54,979 nucleotides of DNA from a bacterium. Lineage in GTDB: Bacteria > Patescibacteriota > Minisyncoccia > UBA6257 > UBA9933. Below the pieces are notes generated by a model. That model saw only the letters and a list, made by a program, of their open reading frames with translations, was not told where the DNA came from and made no database searches. Positions 6,133-53,398 of the stretch are shown here, one piece after another. The stretch lies in contig JAJYHZ010000003.1 in the NCBI GenBank assembly GCA_021796335.1, positions 1 through 54,979 on the forward strand, read 5' to 3'. Every line of letters begins with the position of its first letter. Positions within the stretch are counted from its first letter, which is position 1. The position numbers were made by a program, and so were the translations under genes.

Positions 6133-6210
6133 AATATATTTTAGTTGTCAGTTGTTAGTGATTAGTTTTTAAAACTAATCACTAATTGCTAATTACTAAG
6201 TGTTAAATTA

Positions 6211-6594
6211 ATGCGTTTATTAGGTATTAATATTCCGGATAATAAAAAATCAGAATATGCCTTAGGTTATCTTTACGGCATTGGTCATACTTTAGCGGTG
6301 AAAATTTTAACGGAAACCAAAATCGATTTAAATAAGAGAATCAAGGATTTGAATGCGGATGAAGTCAGGAAAATCCAAGATTATATTGAAAAGCATTATA
6401 AAGTAGAAGGAGAACTTCGCCAGATAGTCAAGTCAAATATTTCAAGATTGAAAGATATTCAGGCTTACAGGGGAGTAAGACATATGAGGAGATTACCGGC
6501 TAGAGGCCAAAGAACAAAAACAAATTCCCGAACAATTCGAGGCAATGTCAGAAAGACGGCTGCAAGCGGAAAAAGAAAAGTGGAATTGAAATAA
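6211..6594 (+). CDS. rpsM: 30S ribosomal protein S13
   Basis: YGIG, YRGVRH..LPARGQRTKTN. Confidence 0.97.
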   Translation: MRLLGINIPDNKKSEYALGYLYGIGHTLAVKILTETKIDLNKRIKDLNADEVRKIQDYIEKHYKVEGELRQIVKSNISRLKDIQAYRGVRHMRRLPARGQRTKTNSRTIRGNVRKTAASGKRKVELK

Positions 6595-6686
6595 AATATT
6601 TAATGCTAATATACTAATGCATGTGAATGCAATAAATAATACTAATTATTACAAAACTTGCATATTCGCATTATTTAGCCAAAACT

Positions 6687-7139
6687 ATGGGTAAAAAGAA
6701 AGTTATAAAACAAACAGAAGCAGAAGTGCTGAAAGAAAGCGAAAACCTGGAAAAGGTGATGACTAAGGTTTCAGGGAAGGCATCATCGAAAAAAATCGAA
6801 AACGGCAAGGTTTTCATAAATGCAACATATAACAATACTTTGATAACGGTTACGACCGGCAACGGTGATGTAATCGCCTGGGTTTCGGCTGGAAGCTTAG
6901 GCTTTTCTGGTCCCAAAAAAGCAACTCCATTTGCTTCTTCGAAAGCGATTGCCGCTTTGGCGGAAAAAGTTAAAAAAGTGGGATTGATGAATATCGAAAT
7001 AATCGTTAAGGGGGTTGGATCGGGCCGGGATTCGGCCATTCGGTCTTTAGCGAATCAGGGTTTCAATATAACTTCGGTTAAAGACGTGACTCCGATCCCG
7101 CACAACGGACCGCGGCCGGTCAAGGTTAGAAGAATATAA
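6687..7139 (+). CDS. rpsK: 30S ribosomal protein S11
   Basis: ATYNNT, GFSGPKKATPFA, DVTPIPHNG. Confidence 0.97.
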   Translation: MGKKKVIKQTEAEVLKESENLEKVMTKVSGKASSKKIENGKVFINATYNNTLITVTTGNGDVIAWVSAGSLGFSGPKKATPFASSKAIAALAEKVKKVGLMNIEIIVKGVGSGRDSAIRSLANQGFNITSVKDVTPIPHNGPRPVKVRRI

Positions 7140-7212
7140 TCACAAATTTACACAAATGTGGCACAAATATCACGAATTCGTGAAATACGTGTCTGACTAG
7201 GGAATAATTAGT

Positions 7213-7827
7213 ATGCTAAAAGCAAAAGAAAAAAAAGAAAGAGCGTTAGGTGTCAAGCTTTTTTTGAAAGCGGAACGTTGCAGTTCTCCGAAATGTGCGA
7301 CAGTAAGGCGTCCGGGCAGGCCGGGACAGCATGGAAAGGCTCGAAGAAAAACGATTTCGGAATACGGTCAGCAGTTAATGGAAAAACAAAAAATAATGTT
7401 CAGCTACGGATTAAGAGAGTCTCAGATGAGAAGAATTTTCAAAGAAGCTTTAGGGAAAAAGACAAATGTTATCGATGCAATTTTTGGACTTTTGGAAAGA
7501 AGACTGGACAATGTTGTTTATAGACTGGGAATAGCTCCATCGAGGATAATGGCGCGGCAATTCGTAAGCCACGGGCATATAACGGTGAACGGTAAAAAAA
7601 CAACTATACCGTCTTTTTTGGTAAAAAAAGGGGATATGATTTCAATCCGGGCGTCTTCTGCTGATTTGGCGATATTTAAAGAACTGCAAAATAATTTAAA
7701 GAAATATGAGGCGCCATCATGGCTTTTTATGGATAAAGAAAAATTGCAGGGGACAATGAAAGCAACGCCGGTTGCAAACGAAACAATGTTCGATATTAAT
7801 CTCGTCGTTGATTTCTACAGTAAGTAA
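7213..7827 (+). CDS. rpsD: 30S ribosomal protein S4
   Basis: PGQHG, SEYGQQL.EKQK, LERRLDNVVYRLG. Confidence 0.97.
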   Translation: MLKAKEKKERALGVKLFLKAERCSSPKCATVRRPGRPGQHGKARRKTISEYGQQLMEKQKIMFSYGLRESQMRRIFKEALGKKTNVIDAIFGLLERRLDNVVYRLGIAPSRIMARQFVSHGHITVNGKKTTIPSFLVKKGDMISIRASSADLAIFKELQNNLKKYEAPSWLFMDKEKLQGTMKATPVANETMFDINLVVDFYSK

Positions 7828-7963
7828 TTAAATTAATAAAACACATAGCTCTGAGTGCACGAAACGCAGAAGATGAAAATTAATTAAAAAACATAAATAA
7901 AGCATAATCAGAGATGTTCAAAACTAAAAAATTTGAACGAGGAGCGGTTAATGCTTAAAAATT

Positions 7964-8740
7964 ATGGAATACGCATTATTAAGCGAAAGCGTACAAATTA
8001 AAAAGATTTCAGAAAACGATAATGAAGGCGTTTTCGAAGTGGAGGGCCTTTTCAGCGGTTACGGTTTGACGATCGGCAATGCGTTGCGCAGGGTTCTTTT
8101 ATCTTCTTTGCCGGGAGCGGCGGTAACCCAGGTCAAGATCAATAACGTCAAACATGAGTTTTCCACTATTGACGGCGTTTTGGAAGACGTTGTTGAATTG
8201 ACTTTAAATCTTAAAAAAATGAGGTTTAAATTTTATGCCGACGAGCTGCAGGTTTTAATGTTAGATATAAAAGGAGAAAAGGAAATTACGGCGGGAGATT
8301 TTAAGACGCCTTCCCAGGTTGAAATCGTGAATCCGGATTTGCACATCGCAACTATTACCGATAAGAAAGTCGAATTAAAAATGGAAATTACGGTTGAAAA
8401 AGGATTGGGATATTCCCCGATTGAATCAAGAAAAACGGAAAAACTTCCCATCGGCGTCGTAGCAATTGATGCGATATTCACTCCCATTACCAAAGTTAAT
8501 TTTACAATTGAGAATATGCGCGTGGGAGAAAGGACTGATTATAACAAATTAAGACTAGTTGTTGAGACTGACGGGACTATTGCTCCGTCAGCGGCCTTGA
8601 GAAAAGCGGCCAATATTTTAAAAGACCATTTTGACAAAGTTTCTCAAGTCGAAGTTGTCGAAGAAGCTATTCCAAAAGAGAAAAAAGAAGCGAAGGAAAC
8701 TAAGGAAAAGAAAGAGACTAAGAAGAAAACAAAAAAGTAG
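7964..8740 (+). CDS. rpoA: RNA polymerase subunit alpha (no alphaCTD)
   Basis: GYGLTIGNALRRVLLSSLPG, HEFSTIDGV.EDV; only 258 aa with a K/E tail. Confidence 0.96.
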   Translation: MEYALLSESVQIKKISENDNEGVFEVEGLFSGYGLTIGNALRRVLLSSLPGAAVTQVKINNVKHEFSTIDGVLEDVVELTLNLKKMRFKFYADELQVLMLDIKGEKEITAGDFKTPSQVEIVNPDLHIATITDKKVELKMEITVEKGLGYSPIESRKTEKLPIGVVAIDAIFTPITKVNFTIENMRVGERTDYNKLRLVVETDGTIAPSAALRKAANILKDHFDKVSQVEVVEEAIPKEKKEAKETKEKKETKKKTKK

Positions 8741-8827
8741 TTCATAAAGTGAAAAGTTATAAAGTTCATAACGTAGAATATCTTATGAACTTTAAGCGAA
8801 GTGAATTTTATAAACTTGCAGTTGTTT

Positions 8828-9178
8828 ATGAGGCATTTAGTAAAAACCAAAAAATTTCATAGGAAGACCGGCCAACGAAAAGCTTTATATAAACATTTAG
8901 CGAATAATCTTATTTTGGAGGAAAAAATGACGACTACGGAGGCCAAGGCAAAATACGTGAAATCTTACGTTGAAAAGATGATAACTTTGGGCAAGAAACA
9001 GAATTTAGCCGCCTTGAGACTTTTAATTTCGCGAATTCCGAAAGGAGCGGCTGAGAAGATTTATTATGAATTAGCTCCGAAATATAAAGGTAGAAAGGGC
9101 GGATATCTGAGAATAACCAAAAGCGCGGGCAAAAGGAAAAGAGACGGAGGGGATATGGCGATCGTGGAATTCGTATAA
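8828..9178 (+). CDS. rplQ: 50S ribosomal protein L17
   Basis: MRH start at 8828; TTEAKAK, R.GGYLRI. Confidence 0.95.
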   Translation: MRHLVKTKKFHRKTGQRKALYKHLANNLILEEKMTTTEAKAKYVKSYVEKMITLGKKQNLAALRLLISRIPKGAAEKIYYELAPKYKGRKGGYLRITKSAGKRKRDGGDMAIVEFV

Positions 9179-9269
9179 GCGCAATCCCGATTAATCTCAA
9201 TCTGAAATTTGCACAATTTTGTGTAATTCTGAGAATTCGTATAACACTTGTAAATTCGAGTTATTAATA

Positions 9270-9299
9270 TTGACTAATCACTATTTAATAGTATAAAAT
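9270..9299 (+). promoter_or_regulatory. Putative promoter of tuf
   Basis: TTGACT-16nt-TATAAA. Confidence 0.45.
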
Positions 9300-9436
9300 C
9301 AAAAAGTCGTTAAAAAACAAAAATAATAATACTAATATACTAATTCGTGCTAATGATACGAATGATACAAATAATTATTCGTAGCCATTAGTATCATTCG
9401 AATGCATTCGTATATTGGTATTATAAATTAATCAAT

Positions 9437-10636
9437 ATGGCAGAAAAAGAAAAATTCGAACGTTCTAAGCCGCATGTTAATGTTGGAACCATCGGACATG
9501 TTGATCATGGCAAAACAACTTTAACCGCAGCTATTACCCACGTTCTTCACTTGAAAGGTTTGATTTCCAAAGAAGAAAAAGTGGACCAAATCGACAATGC
9601 GCCCGAGGAAAAAGCTCGTGGAATTACTATCGCATTGCATCACTCCGAATACGAAACGGAGAAAAGACACTATGCTCACGTTGATGCTCCGGGACACGCG
9701 GATTATATCAAGAACATGATTACCGGTGCAGCTCAGATGGATGGCGCCATTTTGGTGGTCGCCGCCACTGACGGTCCTATGCCTCAAACCCGGGAACATA
9801 TTTTGTTGGCAAGGCAGGTCGGCGTTCCAAATATCGTTGTTTTCTTAAATAAGGTGGATATGGTGGATGATCCGGAACTTATTGATTTGGTTGAAGCCGA
9901 AGTGAGGGAACTTTTAAAGAAATATCAGTTTGATGGAGATAATGCTCCGGTTATCCGAGGGTCGGCTTTGAAAGCTTTGGAAGCTTCATCAGTTGATGAT
10001 CCTGCGGTTAAGCCGATTTTGGATTTGGTGCAGGCTTTGGATGATTATATTCCGGAACCGGTTCGCGATACTGACAAACCGTTTCTGATGCCGGTTGAAG
10101 ATATTTTCTCGATCGAAGGCCGCGGAACCGTTGTTACTGGCCGTGTTGAAAGAGGAATCGTCAAAGTTAATGAAGAAGTTGAAATTATCGGCATCAAGCC
10201 GACGGCAAAAACTGTTGTTACTGGTATTGAAATGTTTAATAAATTATTGGATGAAGGAAAGGCGGGTGATAACGTAGGCGTTCTTTTGAGAGGCCTTAAA
10301 AAAGAGGATGTTGAAAGAGGACAAGTTCTTGCAAAACCGGGAAGCGTAACTCCGCACACTGAATTTGAGGCCGAAGTTTATATCCTGACCAAGGAAGAAG
10401 GCGGACGGCACACCCCGTTCTTCAAGGGATACAAGCCGCAGTTCTATATCCGAACAACCGATGTTACCGGCGAGGTTCAAATTCCGGCAGGAATGGAAAT
10501 GGTTATGCCTGGCGATACGGTTAATTTAGCGATCAAATTGATTGCTCCGGTTGCCTTGGAAGAGAAGCAAAGGTTCGCCATCCGTGAAGGAGGTAAGACT
10601 GTTGGCGCCGGCGCAGTTACAAAAATCATCAAATAA
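9437..10636 (+). CDS. tuf: Elongation factor Tu
   Basis: [21 protein letters not shown]. Confidence 0.99.
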
Positions 10637-10740
10637 AAAATGGCCACAGACTACAGATTACGGTCAACAGCAGTTCTTAAAAAATTTAGAAAATTGCAAA
10701 TAGCCGTAGTCAGTAGACGGTAGTCCGTAAGCTAATCAAA

Positions 10741-11073
10741 ATGAACAAGAAGGCAAAAGAAGAAGGACAATCAAAATTGCGTTTAAGGGTTAGGTCATAT
10801 GACCATAAGCTGATTGATAATTCCATCAAACAGATTATTGAAACCGCTATTCGAAACGGGGCGGAAATAATAGGACCGGTTCCTTTTCCAACGGAATTTA
10901 AGCGCTATACTGTGAACCGTTCGACCTTTGTCCATAAGGATGCCAGAGAGCAGTTTGAACTGAGGGTTCATAATCGCATGATTGATATTCTTAATCCAAA
11001 TCAAAAAATTATTGAAGCTTTGAGCAGTTTGAATTTGCCTTCAGGGGTGGATATTGAGATAAAAATGAGGTAA
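10741..11073 (+). CDS. rpsJ: 30S ribosomal protein S10
   Basis: SYDHKLID, GPVP.PT, HKDAREQFE. Confidence 0.97.
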   Translation: MNKKAKEEGQSKLRLRVRSYDHKLIDNSIKQIIETAIRNGAEIIGPVPFPTEFKRYTVNRSTFVHKDAREQFELRVHNRMIDILNPNQKIIEALSSLNLPSGVDIEIKMR

Positions 11074-11102
11074 TAAAAATCGCAAGTTAAAGATTTTATT
11101 AC

Positions 11103-11132
11103 GCAAAATCCCGGTTTTATCCGGGATTTTGC
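11103..11132 (+). terminator. Intrinsic terminator after rpsJ
   Basis: gcaaaatcccgg-ttttat-ccgggattttgc. Confidence 0.75.
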
Positions 11133-11285
11133 TTTGAAACATTTTATGGTATATTGAATTATACCTCTGTGGCAATTGCTTCGAGACAATTTTTACACAT
11201 AATTTTTACGCGCGAAATAAGCTTGGTTTACATCAGAATTTATTCTTAGAAGCGCAATACGAGCCGATTGTTTCGTAATTTTATT

Positions 11286-11873
11286 ATGCAAGAAATTTCC
11301 GCCGGTATTATTATTTACCGAAGAACAAAAGATGGATTGAAATTTCTGATTTTGTATCATGGGCACGGATATTGGAATTTTCCGAAAGGAAAAATCGAAA
11401 GCCGAGAGAAAAGTTTCCAGACAGCCCTAAGGGAAATAAGGGAGGAGACCGGTTTGACCCGGTCTGATTTGAAATTCGGCGATTATTTCAAGACCTCGGA
11501 ACATTTTACTTTTTGGAGAGATAAAGAAAAAGTTTCGAAAAACGTGACTTTTTATTTAGCTGAAACCAAGAGAAAAGCGATTAGAATCTCCGAAGTACAG
11601 GAGGGCCAACCCCATGAAGGATTTGCCTGGTTTACCTATAAAGAGGCTTTGGATATTTTGCATCGCCATAAAGATAGCCAGAGAATTTTAAAACAAGCGT
11701 ACCAATTTTTGCAAAACAAAGGAATCGCGCCGGCGGAAAAAATTGAAAAGCCGCAACAGCAATCTCAGCAACTGCAAAAACATCATTACAAAAAATCAAA
11801 TTATCGTAAAAATCCGCAGCAGTCTCCCAACAGATATAAATATTCTTCCAGACCCAGCGCGGAAATTGAATAA
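11286..11873 (+). CDS. NUDIX hydrolase (Ap4A-hydrolase-like) with low-complexity tail
   Basis: SAGII..WNFPKG, Nudix box ALREIREETGL; likely ATG at 11286. Confidence 0.88.
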   Translation: MQEISAGIIIYRRTKDGLKFLILYHGHGYWNFPKGKIESREKSFQTALREIREETGLTRSDLKFGDYFKTSEHFTFWRDKEKVSKNVTFYLAETKRKAIRISEVQEGQPHEGFAWFTYKEALDILHRHKDSQRILKQAYQFLQNKGIAPAEKIEKPQQQSQQLQKHHYKKSNYRKNPQQSPNRYKYSSRPSAEIE

Positions 11874-12024
11874 ATCAGAATTCAGGATATATGGTAAGCG
11901 TGTTTTAATTGCCACAATAGCGATTAATCCGTTGAAGTTGTAGCAATAAAAACAGGGGTTGCAATAATTTTATTAAGTTTGCTTTAAAATAATAGTTGAT
12001 TGGTAGCCCTAATTTTTAAAAATT

Positions 12025-12705
12025 ATGGACTTATTTTCAAACGGTGCAATTACATTGAGTTTTGATGATGGGTGGAAATGTATTTACGATAATGCCTTCC
12101 CAATCATTAAAAAGAATAAAATTCTAGCAACTTTTTATGTAATAAGCGGTTATCTTGATGACGAACAATTTCCTCGTTATATGAATATTGAAGATATTCG
12201 GGATTTAGAAAAACACGGACATGAAATTGGCTGTCATACAGTTTCACACAAACATCTTTCGCAAGAAAACAAAAATATAATAAAAGAAGAAATTATTTCA
12301 TCTCTTGATTATTTAAAAAACGAAGGTTTTTCAGTCAGTACATTTTCCTATCCCTACGGAGAATTTAATGATGAAATTTTGGAAATAGTAAAAAACGCAG
12401 GATTTATCGGCGCCCGAAGTGTTGAAAGAGGATTTAATGATTTAGAAACCAACCCCTTTTTATTAAAATGTCAGGCTGTTAAGACTTCAACAAAACCAGA
12501 GCAGGTGAAGGAGTGGATTGATTTTGCTAAAGCCAGGAATAAGTGGTTGATTTTAATGCTTCACCAGATAGATCATGATGGAAGAGAATGGAGCACAACC
12601 TCTGAGATTTTAACAGAAATTGTTGATTGTATAAAAAACAGCAACATTAATTCCATTACGCTTAAAGAGGGTTTGAAAATTTTAAATGATGCAGCAACTA
12701 TTTAA
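12025..12705 (+). CDS. Polysaccharide deacetylase (NodB-like)
   Basis: SFDDG, HEIGCHTVSH, FSYPYG. Confidence 0.92.
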   Translation: MDLFSNGAITLSFDDGWKCIYDNAFPIIKKNKILATFYVISGYLDDEQFPRYMNIEDIRDLEKHGHEIGCHTVSHKHLSQENKNIIKEEIISSLDYLKNEGFSVSTFSYPYGEFNDEILEIVKNAGFIGARSVERGFNDLETNPFLLKCQAVKTSTKPEQVKEWIDFAKARNKWLILMLHQIDHDGREWSTTSEILTEIVDCIKNSNINSITLKEGLKILNDAATI

Positions 12706-12949
12706 ACAAAAAGTTTTTGAAGTTGTTAAGGAAATTTCAAAAGGAAAAACTTTAACTTACAGACAGGTGGCGGAATTAGCAGGGCGGCCAAAAGCATATC
12801 GGGCAGTCGGAAACATCTTGAATAAGAATTCCTATAAAAATATCCCTTGCCATCGGGTTATCCGTTCTGACGGAGAAATCGGCGGATATAATCGCGGCCA
12901 GAAATTAAAAATAAAAAAATTAAGATCTGAGGGATTTAGAATTGAGTGA
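12686..12949 (+). CDS. MGMT-family O6-alkylguanine DNA alkyltransferase (C-terminal domain only)
   Basis: TY..VA..AG.P.A.RAVG and active-site PCHRV. Confidence 0.9.
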   Translation: MMQQLFKQKVFEVVKEISKGKTLTYRQVAELAGRPKAYRAVGNILNKNSYKNIPCHRVIRSDGEIGGYNRGQKLKIKKLRSEGFRIE

Positions 12950-12992
12950 TTTAATCAAAATAATTTGATATCCTTCATTTTTATTTTTTTTC

Positions 12993-13337
12993 TTATTTTG
13001 CCTTAGCAACTATTTGCTCAAAAACTTTAGGTTCTTTTCTTGCGATTTCCGCTAAGATTTTTCTATCAATTATAATGTTTGCTTTTTTTAATCCGTTAAT
13101 TAGTTTGCTATATGTTGTGCCATTGGTTCTGGCTGCGGCATTGATTTGAACCTGCCATAAGCTGCGGTAGTCTCTTTTCTTTTGTTTTCTTCCGGAAAAT
13201 GCGTGTGACATGGAGTGGAGAAGAGCTTCTTTAGCGGCTCTTTCTTTTGATTTCCTTCCCCAGCGGAATCCCTTGGTCTGTTTTAATACTTTTTCTCTTT
13301 TTTTATGGGCTATTGTGCCTCGTTTTACTCTGGTCAT
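12993..13337 (-). CDS. rplT: 50S ribosomal protein L20
   Basis: MTRVKRG, KKRDYRSLW..INAAAR. Confidence 0.97.
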   Translation of the reverse strand: MTRVKRGTIAHKKREKVLKQTKGFRWGRKSKERAAKEALLHSMSHAFSGRKQKKRDYRSLWQVQINAAARTNGTTYSKLINGLKKANIIIDRKILAEIARKEPKVFEQIVAKAK

Positions 13338-13373
13338 AGATTAGTGGTTAGTGATTAGTTTTTAGTAATTAGG

Positions 13374-13550
13374 CTAGTGGCTGGCGTATTTTTGGATATT
13401 TTTTGCTTCAGTAACAAGCTCTCTCATTCCGGATTTTCGATTCATTTCCTTGCTTTTCTTTTTGGCCCGAAAATGGCCCAAGCCCATGGCTCTTCTGAGA
13501 ACCTTGCCGTTTTTGGTGATTCTAATTCTTTTTTCTACGGTGTTTTTCAT
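13374..13550 (-). CDS. rpmI: 50S ribosomal protein L35
   Basis: KRIRITKNGKV.R...GH; lies between infC and rplT; start at ATG 13550. Confidence 0.9.
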   Translation of the reverse strand: MKNTVEKRIRITKNGKVLRRAMGLGHFRAKKKSKEMNRKSGMRELVTEAKNIQKYASH

Positions 13551-13655
13551 AGCTTCGCTTTTATAATGCCAATCTGCAGATTTATGCAAATCTGTAAATA
13601 ATGCGGATTCGTATTATTTGTTTCATTCGCAATTATTTGCATATTGGTATTGTGA

Positions 13656-14162: not shown

Positions 14163-14206
14163 TGATTTTAAAATTTAATAGAGAAATCTGTATTTACAGC
14201 TTAATA

Positions 14207-21014: not shown

Positions 21015-21093
21015 ATTTCTAATTAATCTATTATTCTAAATTCTAATAAGCCGGATTTATATTCAGAAATTAGGATTTAGAAATTTTGTTTTA

Positions 21094-21507: not shown

Positions 21508-21568
21508 GCCAAAAGTCAAAATTAAAAATTTAAATAATAATTTTGAATTTTGTCTTTTTAAATTTTTT

Positions 21569-21778: not shown

Positions 21779-21872
21779 ATTATCTGACTACGGACCACAG
21801 GCTACGGACTATAGAAATTTAGATCTATTCTTCTATTTTTTCCGTAGATTGTAGGCAGTAGCATGTAAATTT

Positions 21873-31934: not shown

Positions 31935-31938
31935 CTGG

Positions 31939-31966
31939 AAGTCCGCTTAAAAAAAGCGGACTTTTT
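31939..31966 (+). terminator. Intrinsic terminator
   Basis: aagtccgctt-aaaaa-aagcggactt-ttt. Confidence 0.65.
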
Positions 31967-31984: not shown

Positions 31985-32452
31985 ATGGATAAAAAGGGAA
32001 AAATCATAGATCGGGCTTTTGATATCGGGGTCATTTTGAAAGGAATTGACGGATTTATTGAGATCATCGGCGGGATGCTTCTGTTTTTTATTTCCCCTGC
32101 GCAAATCAACAGCTTTATTCTGTTGATAGCTCAGCACGAGTTAAGTCAGGATCCCAAAGACATTTTGTTTAATTTTTTGATAAAAGCCAGCCAGCAGTTG
32201 TCGGTAAAAGCAGAAATTTTTACAGCCATCTATTTTCTGACTCATGGGATCATAAAAGTCGGTTTGATTGCGGCACTTCTGGGGAAAAAACTCTGGGCGT
32301 ATCCGACAGCAATAATTTTCTTTACAGCTTTCGGAGTTTACCAGATTTACCGTTATTTTTATTCTCATGCGGTTTCAATGTTGATTTTGACCGTATTCGA
32401 TATAGTTATTATTGTTTTGACATGGATGGAGTACAAAAGGATTAAAATATAG
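31985..32452 (+). CDS. DUF2127-like membrane protein
   Basis: LKG.DG..E..GG, HEL..DP.D, Y...HG..K, WAYP. Confidence 0.75.
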   Translation: MDKKGKIIDRAFDIGVILKGIDGFIEIIGGMLLFFISPAQINSFILLIAQHELSQDPKDILFNFLIKASQQLSVKAEIFTAIYFLTHGIIKVGLIAALLGKKLWAYPTAIIFFTAFGVYQIYRYFYSHAVSMLILTVFDIVIIVLTWMEYKRIKI

Positions 32453-32630
32453 AATTTAGGATATAGGATTTAGGAAATGAAAGGGCGTGGATAACTCCTA
32501 TTGCGGATATATATACTTATATATTTACTTATTTTAAAGCCGGAAAAATATTTACTGAGCTTATCGAAGTTTTAATTTAAAACTTTTAAACCTTTCGACT
32601 TCGCTCAGAGAATAAAAAATTTTTATAATT

Positions 32631-34199: not shown

Positions 34200-34310
34200 T
34201 TAATCGCGAATAATCACAAATTTGAACACAAATATCACGAATGTATATTTGTGAAATTTGCGACTTATTTATGTAAATTAGTGGAACAATTGTAGCAACA
34301 ATTGATACGC

Positions 34311-34552: not shown

Positions 34553-36070
<1,518 letters not shown>

Positions 36071-36325
36071 ACTATTCAAGTGTCGTTCATCTTGTCGAAG
36101 ACAAGATCGCGGAAGGGCGCGAATAAAACGCGGACTGACGCGGAAAATTAAAAATTCCGCGTAGGTCTGTAATAAGTTTGCGTAAGTCAGCGTTCTCGCC
36201 TTCGACGAGATAGAAGGTGTTGATCGTGGAGCCTTTAAGTCACGATTTCGGGATGACTGAAAAAGTTCTGAAGGTTAAATTATATAGAAATAAGCACAAA
36301 TATTTGCGTTATAAACGCAAAAATA

Positions 36326-39369: not shown

Positions 39370-39445
39370 AATAAGTTCATAGTCTTTAGTATTCGGATTT
39401 TAATTAAAACTTAAGATTAACAACTAATTACTAATAACTATTCAG

Positions 39446-44872: not shown

Positions 44873-44946
44873 TGAAATTATTTGAAACTGTTTTAATTTC
44901 GTCGAATAAATTGGCATATAAGTCATTTTAAGCGGCATTTCAATAA

Positions 44947-45408: not shown

Positions 45409-45542
45409 ATCATGAATTCCGCGTATAGTTTTCCCCGTAACGGGATTATGAGGCGGGAGATGAATTGAAATTAAATTTAACTTCGTAATTGAATTGAATA
45501 AAAAATTTTCTTATTTGATTCAAAAAATGAAGTTATGTGCGG

Positions 45543-47042: not shown

Positions 47043-47070
47043 ATTGAAAAATCATCTTTTTGTTGCTATA

Positions 47071-47105
47071 TTAATCCCACACATAAAATTTATGTGCGGG
47101 ATTAA
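47071..47105. repeat. Near-perfect ccc...ggg palindrome
   Basis: ttaatcccacacataaaatttatgtgcgggattaa, 10 nt before tRNA-Gly. Confidence 0.65.
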
Positions 47106-47115
47106 TTTGATTATT

Positions 47116-47187
47116 GCGGGCGTCGTATAGTGGCTATTATGCTAGCCTTCCAAGCTGGAGACGAGGGTTCGATTCCCTTCGCCCGCT
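47116..47187 (+). tRNA. tRNA-Gly (anticodon TCC), CCA not encoded
   Basis: Acceptor gcgggcg/cgcccgc; anticodon arm ctagc-cttccaa-gctgg; T-arm gagggttcgattccctt. Confidence 0.96.
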
Positions 47188-47194
47188 CAAAATT

Positions 47195-48622
47195 ATGGCT
47201 GCTTATAAACCAACAATTGGTTTAGAAATTCATACTATTTTAAAAACCCAGACAAAAATGTTTTGCGGGTGTTTAAACGTACCCGATGAAAAACAACCAA
47301 ATGCAAATATTTGCCCGATTTGCATGGCTCATCCCGGGACATTACCGACGATAAACAAAGAAGCAGTTGAGAAGGTTATTAAATTAGGGATTGCTTTAAA
47401 TTCGCAGATTGCAGAAGTATCAAAATTTGATCGAAAAAATTATTTTTATCCTGATTTACCGAAAGCTTATCAACTTTCACAATATGATCAACCTTTGGTT
47501 AGTGGAGGAGAATTAAATGGAATTCGATTGCGCAGAATTCATTTGGAAGAAGATGCAGCAAGATTATTACATGATGAAAAAATAAAATCGACTTTGGTGG
47601 ATTTTAATCGTGCCGGAGTTCCTTTAATGGAATTAGTGACTGAGCCAGATGTGACAAATGGTAAACAGGCAACTGATTTTGCAAAAGAATTGCAGTTGAT
47701 AATGCGATATCTGGGAATTTCGGATGCTGATATGGAAAAGGGTCACATGCGAATTGAGGCAAACTTATCTTTAAGCGCCGATGAGAAATTGGGAACAAAA
47801 GTTGAAGTAAAAAATTTGAATTCTTTTAAGGCGGTGGGAGATGCGATTGATTATGAAATAAAAAGACAGACTGAATTTTTGGATAAGGGAGAAAAAATTA
47901 TCCAGGAAACGCGCGGTTGGGATGATAAAAATAAAAAAACCGTTTCGCAGAGGCTGAAAGAAGAAGCGCACGATTATCGTTATTTTCCGGAACCGGATTT
48001 GCCGTCGCTCAACATTAAAGAATTATTTGATTCGGAGAAAATAAAAATGGAAATGCCGGAATTGCCCGCACAAAAAAGAGAACGATTTGCAAAGCAATAC
48101 GGCCTAAATAAAGATCAATCCGGAATGTTGGTGGAGAATAAATTAATGGCTGGATATTTCGAAGAATCCGCAAGCGAGCTAGAGGAACTAGCTCCCGGGG
48201 CAAATTTTCAGAGTCTTTTCAATTATTTGACATCCGATTTAAAAGGATTGATGAAAGAGGGAGAAGTCGATTTCGGGGAAAAATTAAAAATCAGCCCGGA
48301 ATATTTCGCCCGTCTGATTTTCCTTATCTCGAAAAATGAATTAAACAGCAGAATGACTAAAGATATCTTGGCGGAAATGTTTAAAACAGGACTTAATCCG
48401 GAAGATGTTATAAAATTAAAAGGGTTGGATGAGACTGTGTCCGAGAAATCTTTAAGCGAAATAATCGATTCGGTAATTTCAGAAAATCCAAAAGCAATCG
48501 AGGACTATAAGAAGGGGCAAGAAAATGTCATCCAATTTTTAATAGGGAAGGCGATGCAAAAATTGAAAGGACGCGGTAACCCGGATCAGCTTAGAGATTT
48601 ATTTAAAGGGGAAATAAAGTAA
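47195..48622 (+). CDS. gatB: Asp/Glu-tRNA amidotransferase subunit B
   Basis: IGLEIH..L.T.TKMFC, RKNYFYPDLPK, DFNRAGVPLMELV, YRYFPEPDLP; ATG 47195. Confidence 0.97.
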   Translation: MAAYKPTIGLEIHTILKTQTKMFCGCLNVPDEKQPNANICPICMAHPGTLPTINKEAVEKVIKLGIALNSQIAEVSKFDRKNYFYPDLPKAYQLSQYDQPLVSGGELNGIRLRRIHLEEDAARLLHDEKIKSTLVDFNRAGVPLMELVTEPDVTNGKQATDFAKELQLIMRYLGISDADMEKGHMRIEANLSLSADEKLGTKVEVKNLNSFKAVGDAIDYEIKRQTEFLDKGEKIIQETRGWDDKNKKTVSQRLKEEAHDYRYFPEPDLPSLNIKELFDSEKIKMEMPELPAQKRERFAKQYGLNKDQSGMLVENKLMAGYFEESASELEELAPGANFQSLFNYLTSDLKGLMKEGEVDFGEKLKISPEYFARLIFLISKNELNSRMTKDILAEMFKTGLNPEDVIKLKGLDETVSEKSLSEIIDSVISENPKAIEDYKKGQENVIQFLIGKAMQKLKGRGNPDQLRDLFKGEIK

Positions 48623-48674
48623 ATTTTCCGGTCTGATATACAAATGCAGTTTCCCGACTGTAAGGTCGTGGGAA

Positions 48675-48714
48675 GTCTATTATTTTATCCGCCGCGGCGG
48701 ATAAAATAATAGAC
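48675..48714. repeat. Perfect 40-bp palindrome between convergent gatB and miaA
   Basis: gtctattattttatccgccg|cggcggataaaataatagac. Confidence 0.9.
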
Positions 48715-48734
48715 AGGTTATCCATGCTACTTAT

Positions 48735-49715
48735 CTAATCTAAAAAAGATTTTATGAGATTTATCGCCTTATCTGGGCTTTCAACCCAATAGATTTTTTT
48801 ATTCCTTTTAAACCAGGTCATCTGGCGTTTGGCGTATTTCTCACTTTCTTTTTGAATTAAGGCAATCATTTCCTGTTTGGAAATGAGGCCGCGCAAGTAG
48901 CGGGAGATAAAACGGTATTCCAGCCCGAAATCATCCAAACGTTTCCAGCTTATTCCATAGGAAGCAGAAGGCCTTCCTTCGGGGTTTAATGCTTTTCCAT
49001 TATGCAAATTTTCCACCTCTTTAATCATCCCTTGCTTGAGGCGTTTTTTAAGGCGTTTAAAAATCAATTTTCCCGATTCTTCTTTAGATTTTTTTATCCC
49101 TATTATAAGCGTGTTATGGAGTTCGCTATCAGTACTGATAGCGAACGGGATCGGTCTCTTTGTGGTTATCACTATTTCCAAGGCGCGGATAAGACGGCGG
49201 CGGTTATGTGAATCGATATTTCGGCTGCGCACAGGATCAATCTTTTCCAGTTTTGTAAAAAGTTCTTCGGCTGATAATTTTTCCAGTTTCTTGCGAAGCT
49301 TGAGTTGGGGAGGGACTTGGGGGAATCGCGAGCCATAGATAATCGAATCGATATACAATCCGGTGCCGCCGCAAATTATCGGAATTTTGTTTTTTTTCGA
49401 TATTTTTTCAATGGCCTTGTTCGCGAGCTTTTGATATTGGGCAACGGTGAATGTTCTTTTCGGATTTGCGACATCTAAAAGATAATGAGGAATGCCTTTA
49501 TAGAAATAACTGTTAGCTGTTAGTTCATAGTTTTTAGGGGGAAATTTGTCGCGGGGGATTTTACCAGCGCCCAAGTCCAGTCCGCGATAAACTTGGCGGG
49601 AATCGGCCGAAATAATTTCTCCGTTGAATTTTTTTGCTATTTCCACGGCGAGATCGGATTTTCCTGACGCGGTCGGGCCGAGGATTACGATAACTTTTTG
49701 TTTATTTTTAGTCAT
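48735..49715 (-). CDS. miaA: tRNA dimethylallyltransferase
   Basis: GPTASGKS, ISADSRQVY, GGTGLY, YAKRQMTWF. Confidence 0.96.
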   Translation of the reverse strand: MTKNKQKVIVILGPTASGKSDLAVEIAKKFNGEIISADSRQVYRGLDLGAGKIPRDKFPPKNYELTANSYFYKGIPHYLLDVANPKRTFTVAQYQKLANKAIEKISKKNKIPIICGGTGLYIDSIIYGSRFPQVPPQLKLRKKLEKLSAEELFTKLEKIDPVRSRNIDSHNRRRLIRALEIVITTKRPIPFAISTDSELHNTLIIGIKKSKEESGKLIFKRLKKRLKQGMIKEVENLHNGKALNPEGRPSASYGISWKRLDDFGLEYRFISRYLRGLISKQEMIALIQKESEKYAKRQMTWFKRNKKIYWVESPDKAINLIKSFLD

Positions 49716-49763
49716 TTTTATTTTATTATTTTAACAGCAATTTTATCTTTTCTAAAAGGTCTC

Positions 49764-49907
49764 GGGCAGGAAAACAGCTTGTTGATATAAGCGCAATTAC
49801 GCGCTTATGTAGAGCTATCCCTATGATGCGCTTCGGGCGCGCCTGAGGGTGCCCCCTATACGATTTTCTATTAAAGAAAGCGCGGAGGGTTTATTACCTA
49901 TCTGCCC
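49764..49907 (+). ncRNA. Structured RNA, candidate 6S RNA
   Basis: Ends pair (gggcag/ctgccc); rod-like core with UUCG-capped apical stem; strong terminator directly after. Confidence 0.45.
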
Positions 49908-49909
49908 CA

Positions 49910-49938
49910 AAAAAGGGCTCGCAAAGCGAGCCCTTTTT
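49910..49938 (+). terminator. Strong intrinsic terminator
   Basis: aaaaagggctcgc-aaa-gcgagcccttttt. Confidence 0.85.
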
Positions 49939-50029
49939 AATTTTTACTCACACACCAAATGTCCCGAGTGTAAGCTGCGGGGAGTACTTCACATTTTGAA
50001 ATTTTTAAAAAAATTTATACAATAAAATC

Positions 50030-50279
50030 AGCAAGGGCAAGGTGGCATATGAAAATATCCGGTACTGCTAAAGTAGTGCGGCCGCAGCCGGATGTTGGCT
50101 TGAGCGGATTACGCCCCCTTTCTAATTCCACTCAAAAGCCCGGTAATGCTCCGGGGTATGCCACCGTCATTTTAAAATAATATTTTCAGAGAGGAGGTGT
50201 ATTAAAACCAAAGATCCTCTTAATCGGAGAGCGGATATGACTCTTGGAGAAATCAAAGGGGGCTGAAAGCCCTCTTTTT
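50030..50279 (+). ncRNA. Unidentified structured transcription unit (multi-stem junction RNA and/or 43-aa ORF)
   Basis: Promoter TTGAAA-16-TACAAT (49996-50023); stems P1-P4 at 50041-50165; terminator at 50257-50279. Confidence 0.5.
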
Positions 50280-50364
50280 ATCGTATAAATTTTTATGATA
50301 TTTTTTAATAAATTTATTAAAATTTTAAAAATAAATAACAAAAATTTTAAAACAAAACAACCTT

Positions 50365-51078
50365 TTAGATTTTAATATTTTTTGTAAAACTATTTCGATG
50401 GATTTTTGAGAGTCCGTATTTTTTTAAAGCGGCAAAGTGTTTTTTAGTGCCGTATCCTTTGTGCTCGTTAAACCCATATTGCGGGAATTTTTTATGGAGC
50501 AGCGCCATTTTTTTGTCGCGATAAACTTTGGCAATAATGGAAGCCAAAGAAATTTCCGGAATTAATTCGTCGCCTTTAATTATGGTTTTGGACATAACTC
50601 TTTTATTTAAATTTTTGATTTTTTTTGAATCTAGATAAAGTTCGCCGTCAAGATAAATATTGTAAGATTGCGGGATTAGATAATCAGAAGATTCTGAATT
50701 CTGAATTTTCAATTTTTCAATCAGCCTGATCGCGGCGCGAGTGGCCGCTAGGTTGGCGGATTTGGAAATATTCGTCTTATCAATTGTTTTGGGATAGACG
50801 GATGCGATCGTGTGCGGAATCTTGTTCTTTTTTACGAAATCAGCCCATTTTTCCCGCTGTCTGGCAGTTAACCTTTTCGAGTCTCGCAGAGGAATATAAT
50901 TACCATTATCCCTTTTTTGAAAAGGGATAATGGATTTAAGATCGGCCGGAATAATGGCTGCGCAGGCAACAACGGGACCGGCTAAGGGGCCGCGGCCGAC
51001 TTCGTCTATTCCGATTATCCACGCATCAGAGTGTTTTGAGTGTAAATTAAGGAAACGCTTCGCTGTTTTTTTAGCCAT
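50365..51078 (-). CDS. rnhB: Ribonuclease HII
   Basis: GIDEVGRGPLAGPV, DSK.L, KGD, ASIIAKV.RD, HKGYGT. Confidence 0.96.
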   Translation of the reverse strand: MAKKTAKRFLNLHSKHSDAWIIGIDEVGRGPLAGPVVACAAIIPADLKSIIPFQKRDNGNYIPLRDSKRLTARQREKWADFVKKNKIPHTIASVYPKTIDKTNISKSANLAATRAAIRLIEKLKIQNSESSDYLIPQSYNIYLDGELYLDSKKIKNLNKRVMSKTIIKGDELIPEISLASIIAKVYRDKKMALLHKKFPQYGFNEHKGYGTKKHFAALKKYGLSKIHRNSFTKNIKI

Positions 51079-51142
51079 ATTCTTATTATAAAAATTTAAG
51101 CGGAATTATTGAATATTTGAGTTTTATTGCTAAAATTAACCC

Positions 51143-53302
51143 ATGGGCAGAAAGAAAAAGAAAAAGAAGAGCGGGAAAACGGAAACAAAGAACAAAAGAC
51201 AGGAATTAAAAAAAGAGAAAAATTCGGATTTTTTAAACGAACTCAGGCTTCATCCGGAAACCGTAAAAAGCATTTGGGCGGTTATTTTTTTCGGCATTGC
51301 GGTTTTGTCTTTGTTGGCTGATTTTCAAAATGCCGGACCTGTTGGAAATTTCTTTTATGCGATTTTTGGCAAATTGCTGGGTGTTTGGGGTTATTTTCTT
51401 CTGCCGCTTATTTTTTTGGTGATGGGAATCGTATTTCTGACTTCGGAACGCAAGAAAATTTATGGAATTACTTTTTTAGGCGCGGGACTTTTTATACTTT
51501 CCGGTTTGGGATTTATAAATATCGTTTTCAGCGGGAACAAGGCCGGCTGGATCGGAAATATCGTCGGATCAATTCAGAATTTATTCGGATTTTCGGCGGC
51601 TTTGGTTATTATTTCAGTTCTGATAATAATCTCGTTTTTAATAACGCTTAACTTACCTATTAAGCTTAGTTCTTCTTTTGAAAAAGAGAATGCTTCTGAA
51701 GAAGAGATCGGAATTCCGGAAGACGAAGAAACGAAAAATCCGGAAGAAAACCGGTCCGAACAGGAAGAAAGGGTGGAGGCTGAACCCGAAGAAAAAGATC
51801 TGAAAACAAAAATCGTTGAGGCGATTCCCGCACCGATTAAGCCGAGAAAAATAAAAAGCGAAAAACTGGGAGATTATGTTTTTCCGCCTTTGGATTTATT
51901 GAAATCTTCCGTGGAAAAACCAACTTCGGGAGATTTGCGAGCTAATGCCAATATAATCAAAAGAACCTTGGAAAGTTTCGGAATTATGGTGGAAATGGGC
52001 GAGATAAATATCGGTCCGAAAGTTACGCGATATACGTTAAAGCCGGCGGAAGGAGTAAAACTTTCAAGAATTACCGCGCTTTCGCAGGATTTGGCTTTGG
52101 CTTTGGCGGCTCATCCGATTAGAATCGAGGCGCCGATTCCGGGAAAATCTTTAGTAGGAATAGAAGTGCCGAATAAGGCGGCGGCGTTAGTGCGTCTGGG
52201 GAGTTTGATTCATTATCCGGAATTCGAAAGCGCGGGATTATTGGCTTTTGTTTTGGGACGGGATGTAACCGGTGAGCCGATTTTTACCGACATCCAAAAA
52301 ATGCCGCACTTGCTGGTGGCCGGAAGCACGGGTTCGGGGAAGTCTGTGACCATTCATTCGGTTATTCTTTCTTTGCTTTATAAAAATTCTCCGAAGACCT
52401 TGAAGTTGATAATGATCGATCCGAAAAAAGTAGAGCTATCAATTTACGAGAGAATTCCGCATCTGATCGCGCCGGTAGTTACAGAGGCGAAAAAATCTCT
52501 GGGGGTATTTAAATGGGCCATCAACGAGATGGAGCGAAGATATGAAATGTTTTTGAAGGCCGGGTCGCGAGACATAGTAAGCTATAACAAAAAAAATCCG
52601 GAAGACTCCTTGCCGTTTATCGTTATTGTCGTCGATGAATTGGCGGATTTAATGAGTACTTACGGCAGGGAGGTGGAGGGATCAATCGTCCGGCTTGCGC
52701 AGATGGCGCGCGCAACGGGAATCCATTTGATTCTTTCGACTCAAAGGCCTTCCGTTGAAGTTATCACTGGTTTAATAAAAGCGAACATCACTTCGAGAAT
52801 CGCTTTACAGGTGGCAAGTCAAGTGGATTCGCGAACTATCATCGACTCAAGCGGCGCTGAAAAACTTTTGGGCGGCGGCGATATGCTTTTTATTTCCTCA
52901 CAATTATCCAAGCCGAAAAGAATTCAGGGCGCCTTTGTTTCCGAAGACGAAATTTATAAAGTGGCCGATTTTATCCGTACCAAAAATCAGGGAATTATTG
53001 CCGAAGATGAAGAGGTGCCGACTTTCGACAATGGCAACGGGAAAAAAGAGAACGGGGAAAAGGCGGGAGACGTATTCGATGAATTCGCGGGAGGAGATGA
53101 CGATGATGAGTTGTTGCCGCAAGCTGTTGACGTGGTTATTCAGGCCGGAAAAGCTTCCGCTTCTTTGCTACAAAGACGGTTGAAAGTGGGTTATGCGCGG
53201 GCGGCGCGTTTGTTGGATATTATGGAAGAGCAGGGTATCATTGGTCCGGCCGATGGTGCCAAACCTCGTGAAGTATATGATACAATGGGGAAAAGGATAT
53301 AG
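51143..53302 (+). CDS. ftsK: DNA translocase FtsK/SpoIIIE
   Basis: 4TM N-terminus; PHLLVAGSTGSGKS, DELADLM, TQRPSV, gamma domain LQRRL.VGYARAAR. Confidence 0.97.
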   Translation: MGRKKKKKKSGKTETKNKRQELKKEKNSDFLNELRLHPETVKSIWAVIFFGIAVLSLLADFQNAGPVGNFFYAIFGKLLGVWGYFLLPLIFLVMGIVFLTSERKKIYGITFLGAGLFILSGLGFINIVFSGNKAGWIGNIVGSIQNLFGFSAALVIISVLIIISFLITLNLPIKLSSSFEKENASEEEIGIPEDEETKNPEENRSEQEERVEAEPEEKDLKTKIVEAIPAPIKPRKIKSEKLGDYVFPPLDLLKSSVEKPTSGDLRANANIIKRTLESFGIMVEMGEINIGPKVTRYTLKPAEGVKLSRITALSQDLALALAAHPIRIEAPIPGKSLVGIEVPNKAAALVRLGSLIHYPEFESAGLLAFVLGRDVTGEPIFTDIQKMPHLLVAGSTGSGKSVTIHSVILSLLYKNSPKTLKLIMIDPKKVELSIYERIPHLIAPVVTEAKKSLGVFKWAINEMERRYEMFLKAGSRDIVSYNKKNPEDSLPFIVIVVDELADLMSTYGREVEGSIVRLAQMARATGIHLILSTQRPSVEVITGLIKANITSRIALQVASQVDSRTIIDSSGAEKLLGGGDMLFISSQLSKPKRIQGAFVSEDEIYKVADFIRTKNQGIIAEDEEVPTFDNGNGKKENGEKAGDVFDEFAGGDDDDELLPQAVDVVIQAGKASASLLQRRLKVGYARAARLLDIMEEQGIIGPADGAKPREVYDTMGKRI

Positions 53303-53398
53303 ATTTTCACGAATAGAAACTAATGAATGCGAATTACGAATTTTAAAAATTATTCGTGATTTGTGGAAATCATTGATTAATTAGTGCAAATTAATTTT

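Follow-up and report, generated by a model that had tools for sequence, protein, structure and literature searches.

The stretch of DNA analyzed here, 54,979 nt in length and hereafter called the window (contig JAJYHZ010000003.1 of assembly GCA_021796335.1), belongs to a member of the Patescibacteriota and carries, in the spacers between many of its housekeeping genes, hairpins whose arms are built from short, degenerate tandem repeats. On balance, these hairpins are probably gene-less ('solo') or half-decayed forms of palindromic cassettes which resemble the intervening sequences (IVSs) of rRNA genes and which occupy gene junctions between a stop codon and the following start codon. In its full form, such a cassette would carry a single small gene, with an array of short tandem repeats on one side and an inverted one on the other. 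In a first class, arrays of 7-nt units (8-nt in some relatives) with a TAG/CTA core would bracket a gene for a four-helix-bundle protein (PF05635/TIGR02436), and in a second class less regular units of 8-11 nt (CGAAT, CACAAAT, ACGCAGA/ACGCGGA) would bracket a GxxExxY gene. An initial annotation of the window had offered several explanations for the hairpins, namely scars or minimal forms of a mobile or slippage-amplified system, or structures for RNA processing or translation initiation. The mobile-system option is the one that fits best, with cargo-bearing cassettes sharing the arm types of the window hairpins; movement as such was not observed.

The observation made in the initial annotation is confirmed. 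Its 14 regions were each compared with 200 dinucleotide shuffles. Twelve of them fold better than their shuffles (p ≤ 0.05, z -2.2 to -6.0); the fold is not significant at 6600-6680 and 7138-7212 (Table 1). Folded whole, 21 of the 46 spacers of the window reach z ≤ -2. The suggested periodicity of 7-10 nt was borne out in part. A single lag gives a significant self-match in 7 of the 14 regions, with lag 7 at 6141, 10643, 13340, 21508 and 21786, lag 11 at 7138 and a borderline value at 53305. No single lag fits 6600, 8740, 9330, 13567, 34203 and 36108, which are made of irregular 8-10-nt units. The proposed range mixes two classes of units, and period 7 is dominant in one of them. The recurrence of sub-families at distant loci was also found as described: a 16-mer is exact at both 7162 and 34227, and the elements at 10643 and 21780 belong to the same GTAG/CTAC heptad family.

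Furthermore, the periodicity is a property of the genome as a whole. This genome (G000; 752,648 bp in the three contigs C1, C2 and C3, GC content 0.39, 97.3% complete), of which the window is contig C3, was described by a crude codon-usage call of open reading frames (ORFs) comprising 747 genes and about 84% of the sequence; as the longest ORF is not always the true one, distances to start codons may be off. Over 516 spacers with 87,553 nt in total, the lag-7 self-match is 0.299 versus 0.2845 in shuffled spacers (z 7.6), the enrichment that the initial annotation had asked to be checked. At lag 14 it is 0.293 versus 0.284 (z 6.6) and lags 6 and 8 reach z of about 4, while the lag-7 peak is absent from coding DNA. 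Within the arms of spacer hairpins with a folding energy E ≤ -12 the lag-7 self-match rises to 0.327, compared to 0.263 in the hairpins of shuffled spacers. Hairpins with E ≤ -15 number 327 versus 102 after shuffling, a count in which ordinary terminators are included and some hairpins appear twice because chunks overlapped; periodic hairpins (E ≤ -10, at least 14 bp, arm lag-7 self-match at least 0.4) number 45 versus 8. When spacers were compared with each other by blastn, 280 matches were obtained, compared to 10 for shuffled spacers. The window elements have partial copies elsewhere in G000 that are 83-95% identical over 17-55 nt, and these dispersed copies take in non-periodic parts and loops (87% over 55 nt, 86% over 42 nt).

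The arms fall into two classes, heptads with a TAG/CTA core and 8-11-nt units of the CGAAT, CACAAAT or ACGCGGA type; the latter are represented in the window at 6600, 7138, 9326, 13590, 34203, 36108 and 53305. The trinucleotides that recur 7 nt further on in G000 are TAG (85 cases, 13.3 expected), CTA (80, 12.2 expected), AGT (47, 7.3 expected) and ACT (37, 9.9 expected), and no comparable recurrence exists there at lags 6, 8 or 9. Chains of at least three TAG at a period of exactly 7 were found 47 times on both strands, 42 of them in spacers, compared to 0-2 TAG or CTA chains per strand in spacers at the control periods 5, 6, 8 and 10. They comprise three units in 25 cases, four in 12 and five in 10. 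According to the four variable bases, the heptads can be grouped into the families TTAGTnn, (A/T)TAG(A/G)AT, GTAGTCC and TTAGC. The stems of the window elements measure 19-38 bp. A heptad chain also occurs within a coding sequence of the window: in a miaA-like gene (minus strand, 48735-49715) a four-unit CTA chain at 49514-49537, considered as a possible in-frame insertion, is read through in frame and encodes KNYELTANS, part of a loop of the tRNA dimethylallyltransferase. This loop has its long form in 6 of 22 aligned genomes.

Three genes of G000 match PF05635 (23S rRNA IVS protein, four-helix bundle; TIGR02436). Both copies on C2 (279835-280149 and 280801-281094) lie between CTA/TAG heptad arrays in inverted orientation. 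An in-frame stop codon interrupts one of them, and the copy on C1 is truncated and has an in-frame stop codon as well; the intact protein is encoded at C2 280759-281112. Two broken copies out of three are what would be expected of decaying elements. The sole GxxExxY gene of G000 (TIGR04256/PF13366, PD-(D/E)XK-like nuclease family; C1 243650-244042) lies between CACAAAT/CACGAAT arrays that are inverted relative to each other. Arrays around four-helix-bundle (IVP) and GxxExxY genes had been mentioned in the initial annotation, and inverted arrays of the types seen in the window do surround these genes in G000 and in its relatives. The latter are 40 genomes, 24 of the same family and 16 of the same order, each from a different genus (41 genomes including G000), the nearest being G001 with an RpsK that is 83% identical. 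At 28 PF05635 loci of the relatives, where longest-ORF starts absorbed some of the upstream arms, the flanks pair with z < -3 in nine cases (median z -2.2), and clear inverted arrays are present in at least 11. At 28 GxxExxY loci, the flanks pair with z ≤ -3 in about 19 cases, and inverted arrays are visible by eye in nearly all. At least three TAG/CTA pairs at lag 7-8 occur at 9 of the 28 PF05635 loci versus none of the 28 GxxExxY loci. Strongly periodic flanks have a period of 7 (11 cases) or 8 (9 cases) in 20 of 21 instances around PF05635 genes, and a period of 9-10 in all four instances around GxxExxY genes. The arm class thus tracks the cargo class, TAG heptads going with PF05635 and longer units with GxxExxY.

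In several relatives GxxExxY cassettes were found together with their repeat arms in frame inside conserved genes, lepA-like ones at loci L173, L189, L190 and L181 and recG/mfd-like ones at L175 and L195. Open frames of 424-902 aa run across these inserts, which are positioned between conserved GTPase motifs or between the helicase motifs DEQHRFGV and MSATPIPR. A small GIY-YIG-like gene of G000 (C2 393104-393364, 86 aa) is flanked by an inverted repeat of about 20 nt of unique sequence with no micro-repeat array.

Sixteen window elements were then compared with the arms of 56 cassettes, using 30 shuffles as a control. Seven of the 16 match a cassette arm better than all 30 shuffles, and every one does so in the expected class: 7138, 9326, 13590, 34203 and 36108 match GxxExxY arms, 6141 and 32450 match PF05635 arms. 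The element at 7138 is 89% identical over 37 nt (43 bits, shuffle maximum 25.7) to the 5' arm of the GxxExxY cassette of G000 itself, and that at 34203 matches the 3' arm of the same cassette with 86% identity over 37 nt. A GxxExxY cassette arm of the relative G017 matches 9326 with 85% identity over 48 nt (46.8 bits, shuffle maximum 25.7) and 13590 with 82% over 44 nt, and one of G038 matches 36108 with 85% over 26 nt, marginally beyond the shuffles. For the PF05635 class, 32450 is 92% identical over 24 nt to an arm from G025 (35.3 bits, shuffle maximum 23.8), and the match of 6141 surpasses its shuffles marginally. Two further matches remain within the range of the controls, namely that of 21016 to a PF05635 arm (equalled by 2 of 30 shuffles) and a 16-nt exact match of 6600 to a GxxExxY arm (equalled by 1 of 30). 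None of the window elements contains an ORF in its loop. Small genes located between separate window elements were considered as cargo and turned out to be the ordinary rpmI and rpsU.

These results bear on the question of whether the elements could be simple-sequence repeats that were made in place, with slippage and template switching giving rise to quasi-palindromes, without movement or selection and with an incidental link to the cargo genes. Heptanucleotides are reported to be the commonest long simple-sequence repeats in prokaryotes, perhaps through polymerase slippage (Mrazek et al. 2007, as cited in PMC4679880). In agreement with this idea, units are more alike within one array than between arrays, 32 of the 47 TAG arrays have no inverted partner, one-armed arrays precede rpsD in five relatives, and the two strands show no asymmetry (see below). 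However, it leaves unexplained why genes of two specific families are located exactly between inverted arms and why the arm class follows the cargo class. Nor does it account for stretches at distant loci that are 83-95% identical including loops and non-periodic parts, or for a TAG core that is kept across families with different N4 and at lag 7 only. We therefore regard an origin by slippage alone as unlikely. Of the slippage-amplified system suggested initially, growth and shrinkage of the arms by slippage can be retained as a proposal, while slippage on its own fails on the cargo genes and the dispersed sub-families.

The distribution among the relatives is patchy. PF05635 is found in 28 of the 41 genomes and PF13366 in 18, and the number of arrays with three consecutive TAG-N4 units ranges from 0 to 179 over these genomes of one order. 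G000 contains 79 such arrays versus 12 for the reversed control pattern, whereas its nearest relative G001 has 1 versus 12, no PF05635 match and spacers of merely 17 and 42 nt on the two sides of rpsK. More than three times as many arrays as control matches were counted in 15 of 28 PF05635-positive genomes versus 1 of 13 negative ones. The number of arrays correlates with the PF05635 copy number (Spearman rho 0.67, n=41), a test that overstates the association because the genomes are kin. TAG arrays with a period of 8 were observed in G002 (56), G028 (30), G030 (22) and G023 (16), and none in G000.

Alignment of orthologous spacers across relatives, which the initial annotation had called for, revealed this patchy occupancy directly; filled and empty alleles within one species, the other half of that expectation, were not obtained. 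In 30 relatives, the spacers rpsM-rpsK, rpsK-rpsD and rpsD-rpoA come in two forms: they measure 1-20 nt, or hairpins of unrelated units fill them. In G001 and eight other relatives without PF05635, micro-repeat hairpins are absent from the spacers flanking rpsK, which measure 1-42 nt and show a weak tandem array at the most (G018). In addition, metagenomes were scanned for exact occurrences of a 23-mer located at the end of rpmJ, and more than 120 stretches were retrieved; 80 of these were examined, and 65 had rpsM downstream. Among the 65 rpmJ-rpsM spacers, 19 have a length of 45 nt or more, and at least five contain micro-repeat hairpins as judged by eye, none of them from the same species.

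Several observations weigh against the interpretation of the hairpins as remnants of cassettes. An inverted partner chain lies within 110 nt of just 15 of the 47 TAG arrays, so that many of these arrays are not hairpins. The elements at 8740, 10643, 21508, 21780 and 53305 show no significant match to the arms of the 56 sampled cassettes, and the family of 10643 has no cargo-bearing counterpart among them. Besides the kinship that inflates the correlation given above, two genomes deviate from it: G017 has 38 arrays with PF05635 not found, and G027, with one PF05635 gene, lacks arrays. The metagenome scan yielded no filled and empty alleles from the same species, the best RpsM identity being 65%, and neither a target-site duplication nor a recombinase for the elements was identified. 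Finally, the family-specific polarity and the tight fit between stop and start codons described below could equally reflect selection for a function in the host.

If the hairpins are nevertheless remnants of cassettes, the following scheme may be envisaged. The cassettes would behave as selfish or near-neutral DNA which is spread or copied between gene junctions, probably with the help of the cargo proteins. Slippage would lengthen and shorten the arms, and frequent loss of the cargo would reduce cassettes to a hairpin or a single array. Tolerance of such insertions might have two reasons. The arms would pair in the operon transcript to a stem of 20-38 bp which RNase III, whose gene is present in G000 (C1 266090-266482), could cut as it does in rRNA intervening sequences. 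Moreover, as translation is initiated without Shine-Dalgarno sequences, a few bases rich in A ahead of the start codon may be enough. Mobility, the derivation of solo elements by cargo loss and processing by RNase III are what we infer here from the arrangement and distribution of the elements.

The position of the hairpins within operons was analyzed with regard to a role in the host. Of the 45 periodic hairpins, 38 are located in co-directional spacers. Among these, 21 end at most 12 nt before the next start codon, compared to 28 of 128 non-periodic hairpins, and 9 are tight at both ends, compared to 5 of 128. The order of the arms relative to transcription is family-specific in all nine strict cases, the UAG arm coming first in the AT-rich TAG families and the CUA arm in the GTAG family. 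Intrinsic terminators or attenuators would likewise be placed after stop codons. However, at least six T among the next 10 nt follow just 4 of the 38 periodic hairpins, their mean GC content is 0.32, and most lie inside ribosomal-protein operons directly ahead of the next start codon; terminators of the classical GC-rich kind, followed by a T-run, are present as separate structures in the genome, e.g. at 31937-31965. A function in termination, which the initial annotation had already dismissed, is thus very improbable.

A further possibility is that the hairpins are host-selected RNA elements which punctuate operons as RNase III sites, 3'-end stabilizers or insulators of start regions, any selfish origin being secondary. 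Stems of 20-38 bp have suitable dimensions for RNase III, which G000 encodes. The hairpins end a few bases short of start codons, and what remains is a leader rich in A and poor in G; their polarity is family-specific with respect to transcription, and the 16S rRNA lacks an anti-Shine-Dalgarno sequence. In Haemophilus, RNase III is reported to act on a 5'-UTR (untranslated region) element beside heptameric repeats (PMC12721329). Against such a role, G001 and the eight other PF05635-less relatives do without hairpins at rpsK and, where the 16S gene is readable, also without an anti-Shine-Dalgarno sequence; orthologous spacers are occupied patchily, with unit sequences that change from genus to genus, and many arrays are one-armed. 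The transcribed strand folds no better than its complement (19 versus 17), and G-U pairs account for 75 of 847 versus 61 of 782. As there is no asymmetry in folding or G-U pairing, nothing points to selection specific for the RNA strand. The patchy distribution and the missing strand asymmetry weaken the case for a host RNA role, to which we assign a low probability.

The 16S rRNA gene (34553-36073) ends with GGATCA-ATTAAACT and without the CCTCC core of the anti-Shine-Dalgarno sequence (36060-36080), as the initial annotation had supposed. None of the 27 16S ends that could be read in the family and order (G000 and 26 relatives) contains CCTCC; they have an ATTAAA-type tail instead, and array-poor genomes are included among them (e.g. 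G001, G014, G017 and G040). Loss of the anti-Shine-Dalgarno sequence is order-wide and may make the junctions permissive for insertions. Upstream of 466 ATG starts of G000, the sequence is A-rich and G-poor and gives no Shine-Dalgarno signal. The 16S tail following GGATCA is complementary to TAGTTT-type heptads and was considered as an alternative anti-Shine-Dalgarno sequence, yet the duplex energy shows no dip at -5 to -15; over the 466 ATG starts, the profiles for the new tail and for the canonical tail are both without one. Since the anti-Shine-Dalgarno sequence is absent in all 27 genomes, array-poor ones included, the hairpins are not required for initiation without it, and the idea that they are translation-initiation structures is not supported.

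The regular spacing of the TAG core might also mean that the arrays are binding sites of an oligomeric protein, each subunit of which would read one unit. In the case of the TAG heptads this would be the pentameric four-helix-bundle protein, and the solo elements would form its regulon or a system for packaging nucleoid or RNA. HutP of Bacillus reads RNA by a UAG-N4 spacing, and it is this spacing that the TAG arrays display at lag 7. The TAG core is invariant at exactly 7 nt with variable N4, the arrays of G000 have three to five units, and array abundance follows the PF05635 copy number; a homologue of the IVS protein S23p from Xanthomonas forms a homopentameric toroid (Lin et al. 2006, cited in PMC4990558). 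Several findings speak against binding arrays. Two of the three PF05635 copies in G000 are broken, relatives possess arrays of more than five units, the N4 bases are common to the units of one array although TAG-only binding would not need them, and the junctions concerned are a functionally unrelated mix. A HutP homologue is lacking as well, PF09021 giving no match in G000. Overall, we consider arrays of this kind to be quite improbable as the explanation of the solo elements.

A bolder version of the cassette interpretation, which we put forward tentatively and believe to be rather less than likely, holds that two protein-guided hairpin systems may exist that drive the copying of cassettes into stop-start junctions, rRNA genes and ORFs. 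Each cargo protein would read the repeats of its own arms, one unit per subunit or site: a pentameric four-helix-bundle (S23p/Avd-like) ring would read the TAG-N4 heptads, and the GxxExxY PD-(D/E)XK nuclease would read 9-11-nt CGAAT/CGCAGA units. The gene-less copies would then have become an RNase III-dependent punctuation of operon transcripts in Patescibacteria that lack Shine-Dalgarno sites.

Among known systems, rRNA intervening sequences come closest. The 23S IVS of Coxiella burnetii (428 nt) contains an ORF for S23p, has a terminal inverted-repeat stem of 28 bp and is excised by RNase III; 2-3 tandem heptamers, variable in number between strains, precede the ORF, which is decaying, and the IVS was interpreted as selfish (PMC4990558). 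PF05635 ORFs have also been reported from insertions in 16S and 23S rRNA of bacteria of the candidate phyla radiation (CPR) (bioRxiv 10.1101/2024.02.27.582315). The cassettes described here share with these sequences the PF05635 cargo, the long stem of terminal inverted repeats, the tandem heptamers in the arm beside the ORF and the decay of the ORF. They differ in that the elements are located in mRNA spacers between protein genes and not in a helix of mature rRNA, two of them flanking the 16S gene from outside. Most have no ORF; the PF05635 gene is in the loop of no window element, and the cargo-bearing copies reside elsewhere, on C2. Furthermore, whole repeat arrays form the arms, and GxxExxY constitutes a second class of cargo.

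Intergenic direct repeats with the heptanucleotide unit TAACTGA have been described before start codons in marine Beggiatoaceae, cyanobacteria and some Bacteroidetes, where they are unexplained; they consist of one fixed heptamer, inverted in a single reported instance, and are predicted to lack structure (PMC4679880). Like the elements reported here, they are tandem 7-nt units in spacers, often right before start codons and also in ribosomal-protein operons, are associated with genes without Shine-Dalgarno sites and are distributed patchily across taxa. In contrast, the units found here vary around a TAG core, are usually paired as inverted arms of hairpins and are tied to cargo genes. Tandem TAACTGA was searched for and is absent from both strands of G000.

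Repetitive extragenic palindromic (REP) sequences of Proteobacteria, including bacterial interspersed mosaic elements (BIMEs) and REPINs (REP doublets forming hairpins), are likewise short intergenic palindromes in operon spacers that occur in many copies and have no gene of their own. REPs are nearly identical units of about 35 nt which are associated with a RAYT (Y1) transposase. Here the copies are divergent and internally periodic and retain 83-95% identity over 17-55 nt only, and PF01797 (Y1 transposase) has no match in the 97.3% complete G000, so that the initial statement that these are not classical REPs holds. The same applies to CRISPR, since the arrays are contiguous 7-11-mers without spacers and have 3-5 units each. 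Correia elements (NEMIS) of Neisseria and Rickettsia palindromic elements (RPEs) are small palindromic insertions without a gene which transcripts tolerate; Correia hairpins are reported to serve as RNase III substrates, RPEs occur in frame inside genes, and both have terminal inverted repeats of unique sequence. The in-frame cassettes in lepA-like and recG-like genes of relatives recall the RPEs, but the arms here are micro-repeat arrays, and we know of no cargo-bearing master copies with PF05635 or GxxExxY for Correia elements, NEMIS or RPEs. In the main texts of the open-access literature, no description was found of these spacer hairpins in Patescibacteria/CPR or of repeat-armed cassettes in junctions of protein genes.

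The elements of the window are compiled in Table 1. They occupy junctions of rpmJ, rpsM, rpsK, rpsD, rpoA, rplQ, tuf, rpsJ, infC, rpmI and rplT, and further ones of hisS, the HIT gene, rpsU, yqeY, rpmE, the 16S gene, pilus-type genes and ftsK. At gathering thresholds, Rfam matches in the window are confined to 16S rRNA, tmRNA and one tRNA, with none in its spacers.

Table 1. Micro-repeat elements of the window, with their repeat units, folding (E, z), self-match and copies elsewhere in G000
Element	Position	Strand	Units, folding and self-match	Placement; copies elsewhere in G000
Hairpin, rpmJ-rpsM spacer	6141..6199	+	5' arm TAG-type heptads, 3' arm CTA heptads; E -22.3, z -6.0; lag-7 0.69	91% over 32 nt at C2 266769
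Weak irregular repeat element, rpsM-rpsK spacer	6600..6680	+	aatgcta/atacta units; z -1.4	86% over 42 nt at C2 142001
Repeat element, rpsK-rpsD spacer	7138..7212	+	three CACAAAT and one CACGAAT unit, then short hairpin; z -1.3; best lag 11 (p 0.03)	
Hairpin, rpoA-rplQ spacer	8740..8820	+	ttcataaag units; z -3.1 (spacer alone z -4.9)	
Long 38-bp hairpin, rplQ-tuf spacer	9326..9427	+	CGAAT/CTAAT type; E -33.6, z -5.9	stops 9 nt before tuf start codon (9437)
Hairpin, tuf-rpsJ spacer	10643..10731	+	GTAG/CTAC heptad family, CUA arm at 5' end; z -5.1; lag-7 0.49 (p 0.000)	same family at C1 204092 and C1 163398
One-armed array, no hairpin, rpmI-rplT spacer	13338..13373	-	five heptads, CUA in mRNA; five TAG chained at period 7 (plus strand); lag-7 0.77	whole spacer between rpmI (13374-13589) and rplT (12993-13337), both minus strand
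Repeat element, infC-rpmI spacer	13590..13655	-	CGAAT type; z -2.8 (z -4.9 at wider coordinates, 13567-13652)	87% over 55 nt at C1 68009
Hairpin, hisS-HIT spacer	21016..21085	+	ctaaatt/aatttag units; z -2.5	
Hairpin, HIT-rpsU spacer	21508..21565	+	AT-rich, period 7; z -3.8; lag-7 0.67 (p 0.000)	
Hairpin, rpsU-yqeY spacer	21780..21868	+	GTAG/CTAC heptad family; E -24.5, 31 bp; lag-7 0.46 (p 0.000)	spans spacer from 1 nt past stop to 4 nt before start; same family at C1 103265 and C1 265745, identical offset from stop codon
One-armed heptad array	32450..32480	+	TAG(A/G)AT heptads, 4 TAG at period 7	directly 3' of DUF2127 gene
Hairpin between rpmE and 16S rRNA gene	34203..34283	+	CACAAAT type; z -2.2	
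GC-richer hairpin	36108..36195	+	acgcgga/tccgcgt units; E -37.6, z -5.4	35 nt past 16S 3' end
Hairpin, T2SSE-type ATPase gene-T2SSF gene spacer	39370..39445	+	TAG/CTA type, UAG arm 5', CUA arm 3'; z -3.3	
Hairpin, ftsK-HTH_25 gene spacer	53305..53386	+	CGAAT type; z -2.3; lag-7 0.43 (p 0.08)	

Some further features of the genome were noted. A separate dispersed family consists of perfect GATC-centred palindromes of 36-40 bp, with stretches of 46-47 nt that are 100% identical at seven or more loci. Among its members are C1 86762-86797, C1 131846-131883, C2 357045-357082 and C2 243794-243833, and a variant is located in the window at 48675-48714; several of the palindromes are followed by the DnaA-box-like sequence TTATCCACA. 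Three perfect 38-bp palindromes with the common centre gtttcACGTgaaac (C1 157870-157907, 157920-157957 and 158023-158060) lie in one divergent spacer of about 750 bp. Positions 1-127 of the window and 1-127 of C2 are 100% identical, which represents a contig-end repeat or an assembly overlap. RpoA of the window (7964-8740) has just 258 aa; Pfam matches its N-terminal and insert domains and gives no match for the C-terminal domain, and the protein ends in a tail rich in lysine and glutamate. EF-Tu of G000 has its best match, at 87% identity, in a genome designated 'Patescibacteria group', with Kaiser-, Campbell- and Adlerbacteria near 80%.

The elements described here make up a visible share of the non-coding DNA in ultra-small genomes that are under strong size pressure, and they occupy the most conserved operons. 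They tie together intergenic heptamer repeats, rRNA intervening sequences and two abundant families of small proteins, PF05635 and GxxExxY. The link between arm class and cargo class makes direct tests possible, of protein binding or cutting as well as of cleavage by RNase III. In the annotation of Patescibacteria genomes, the elements account for long spacers as well as for spurious small ORFs and odd N-termini. Should two protein-guided hairpin systems indeed exist, this would provide a function for two large families of 'hypothetical' proteins and would explain bacterial heptamer repeats.

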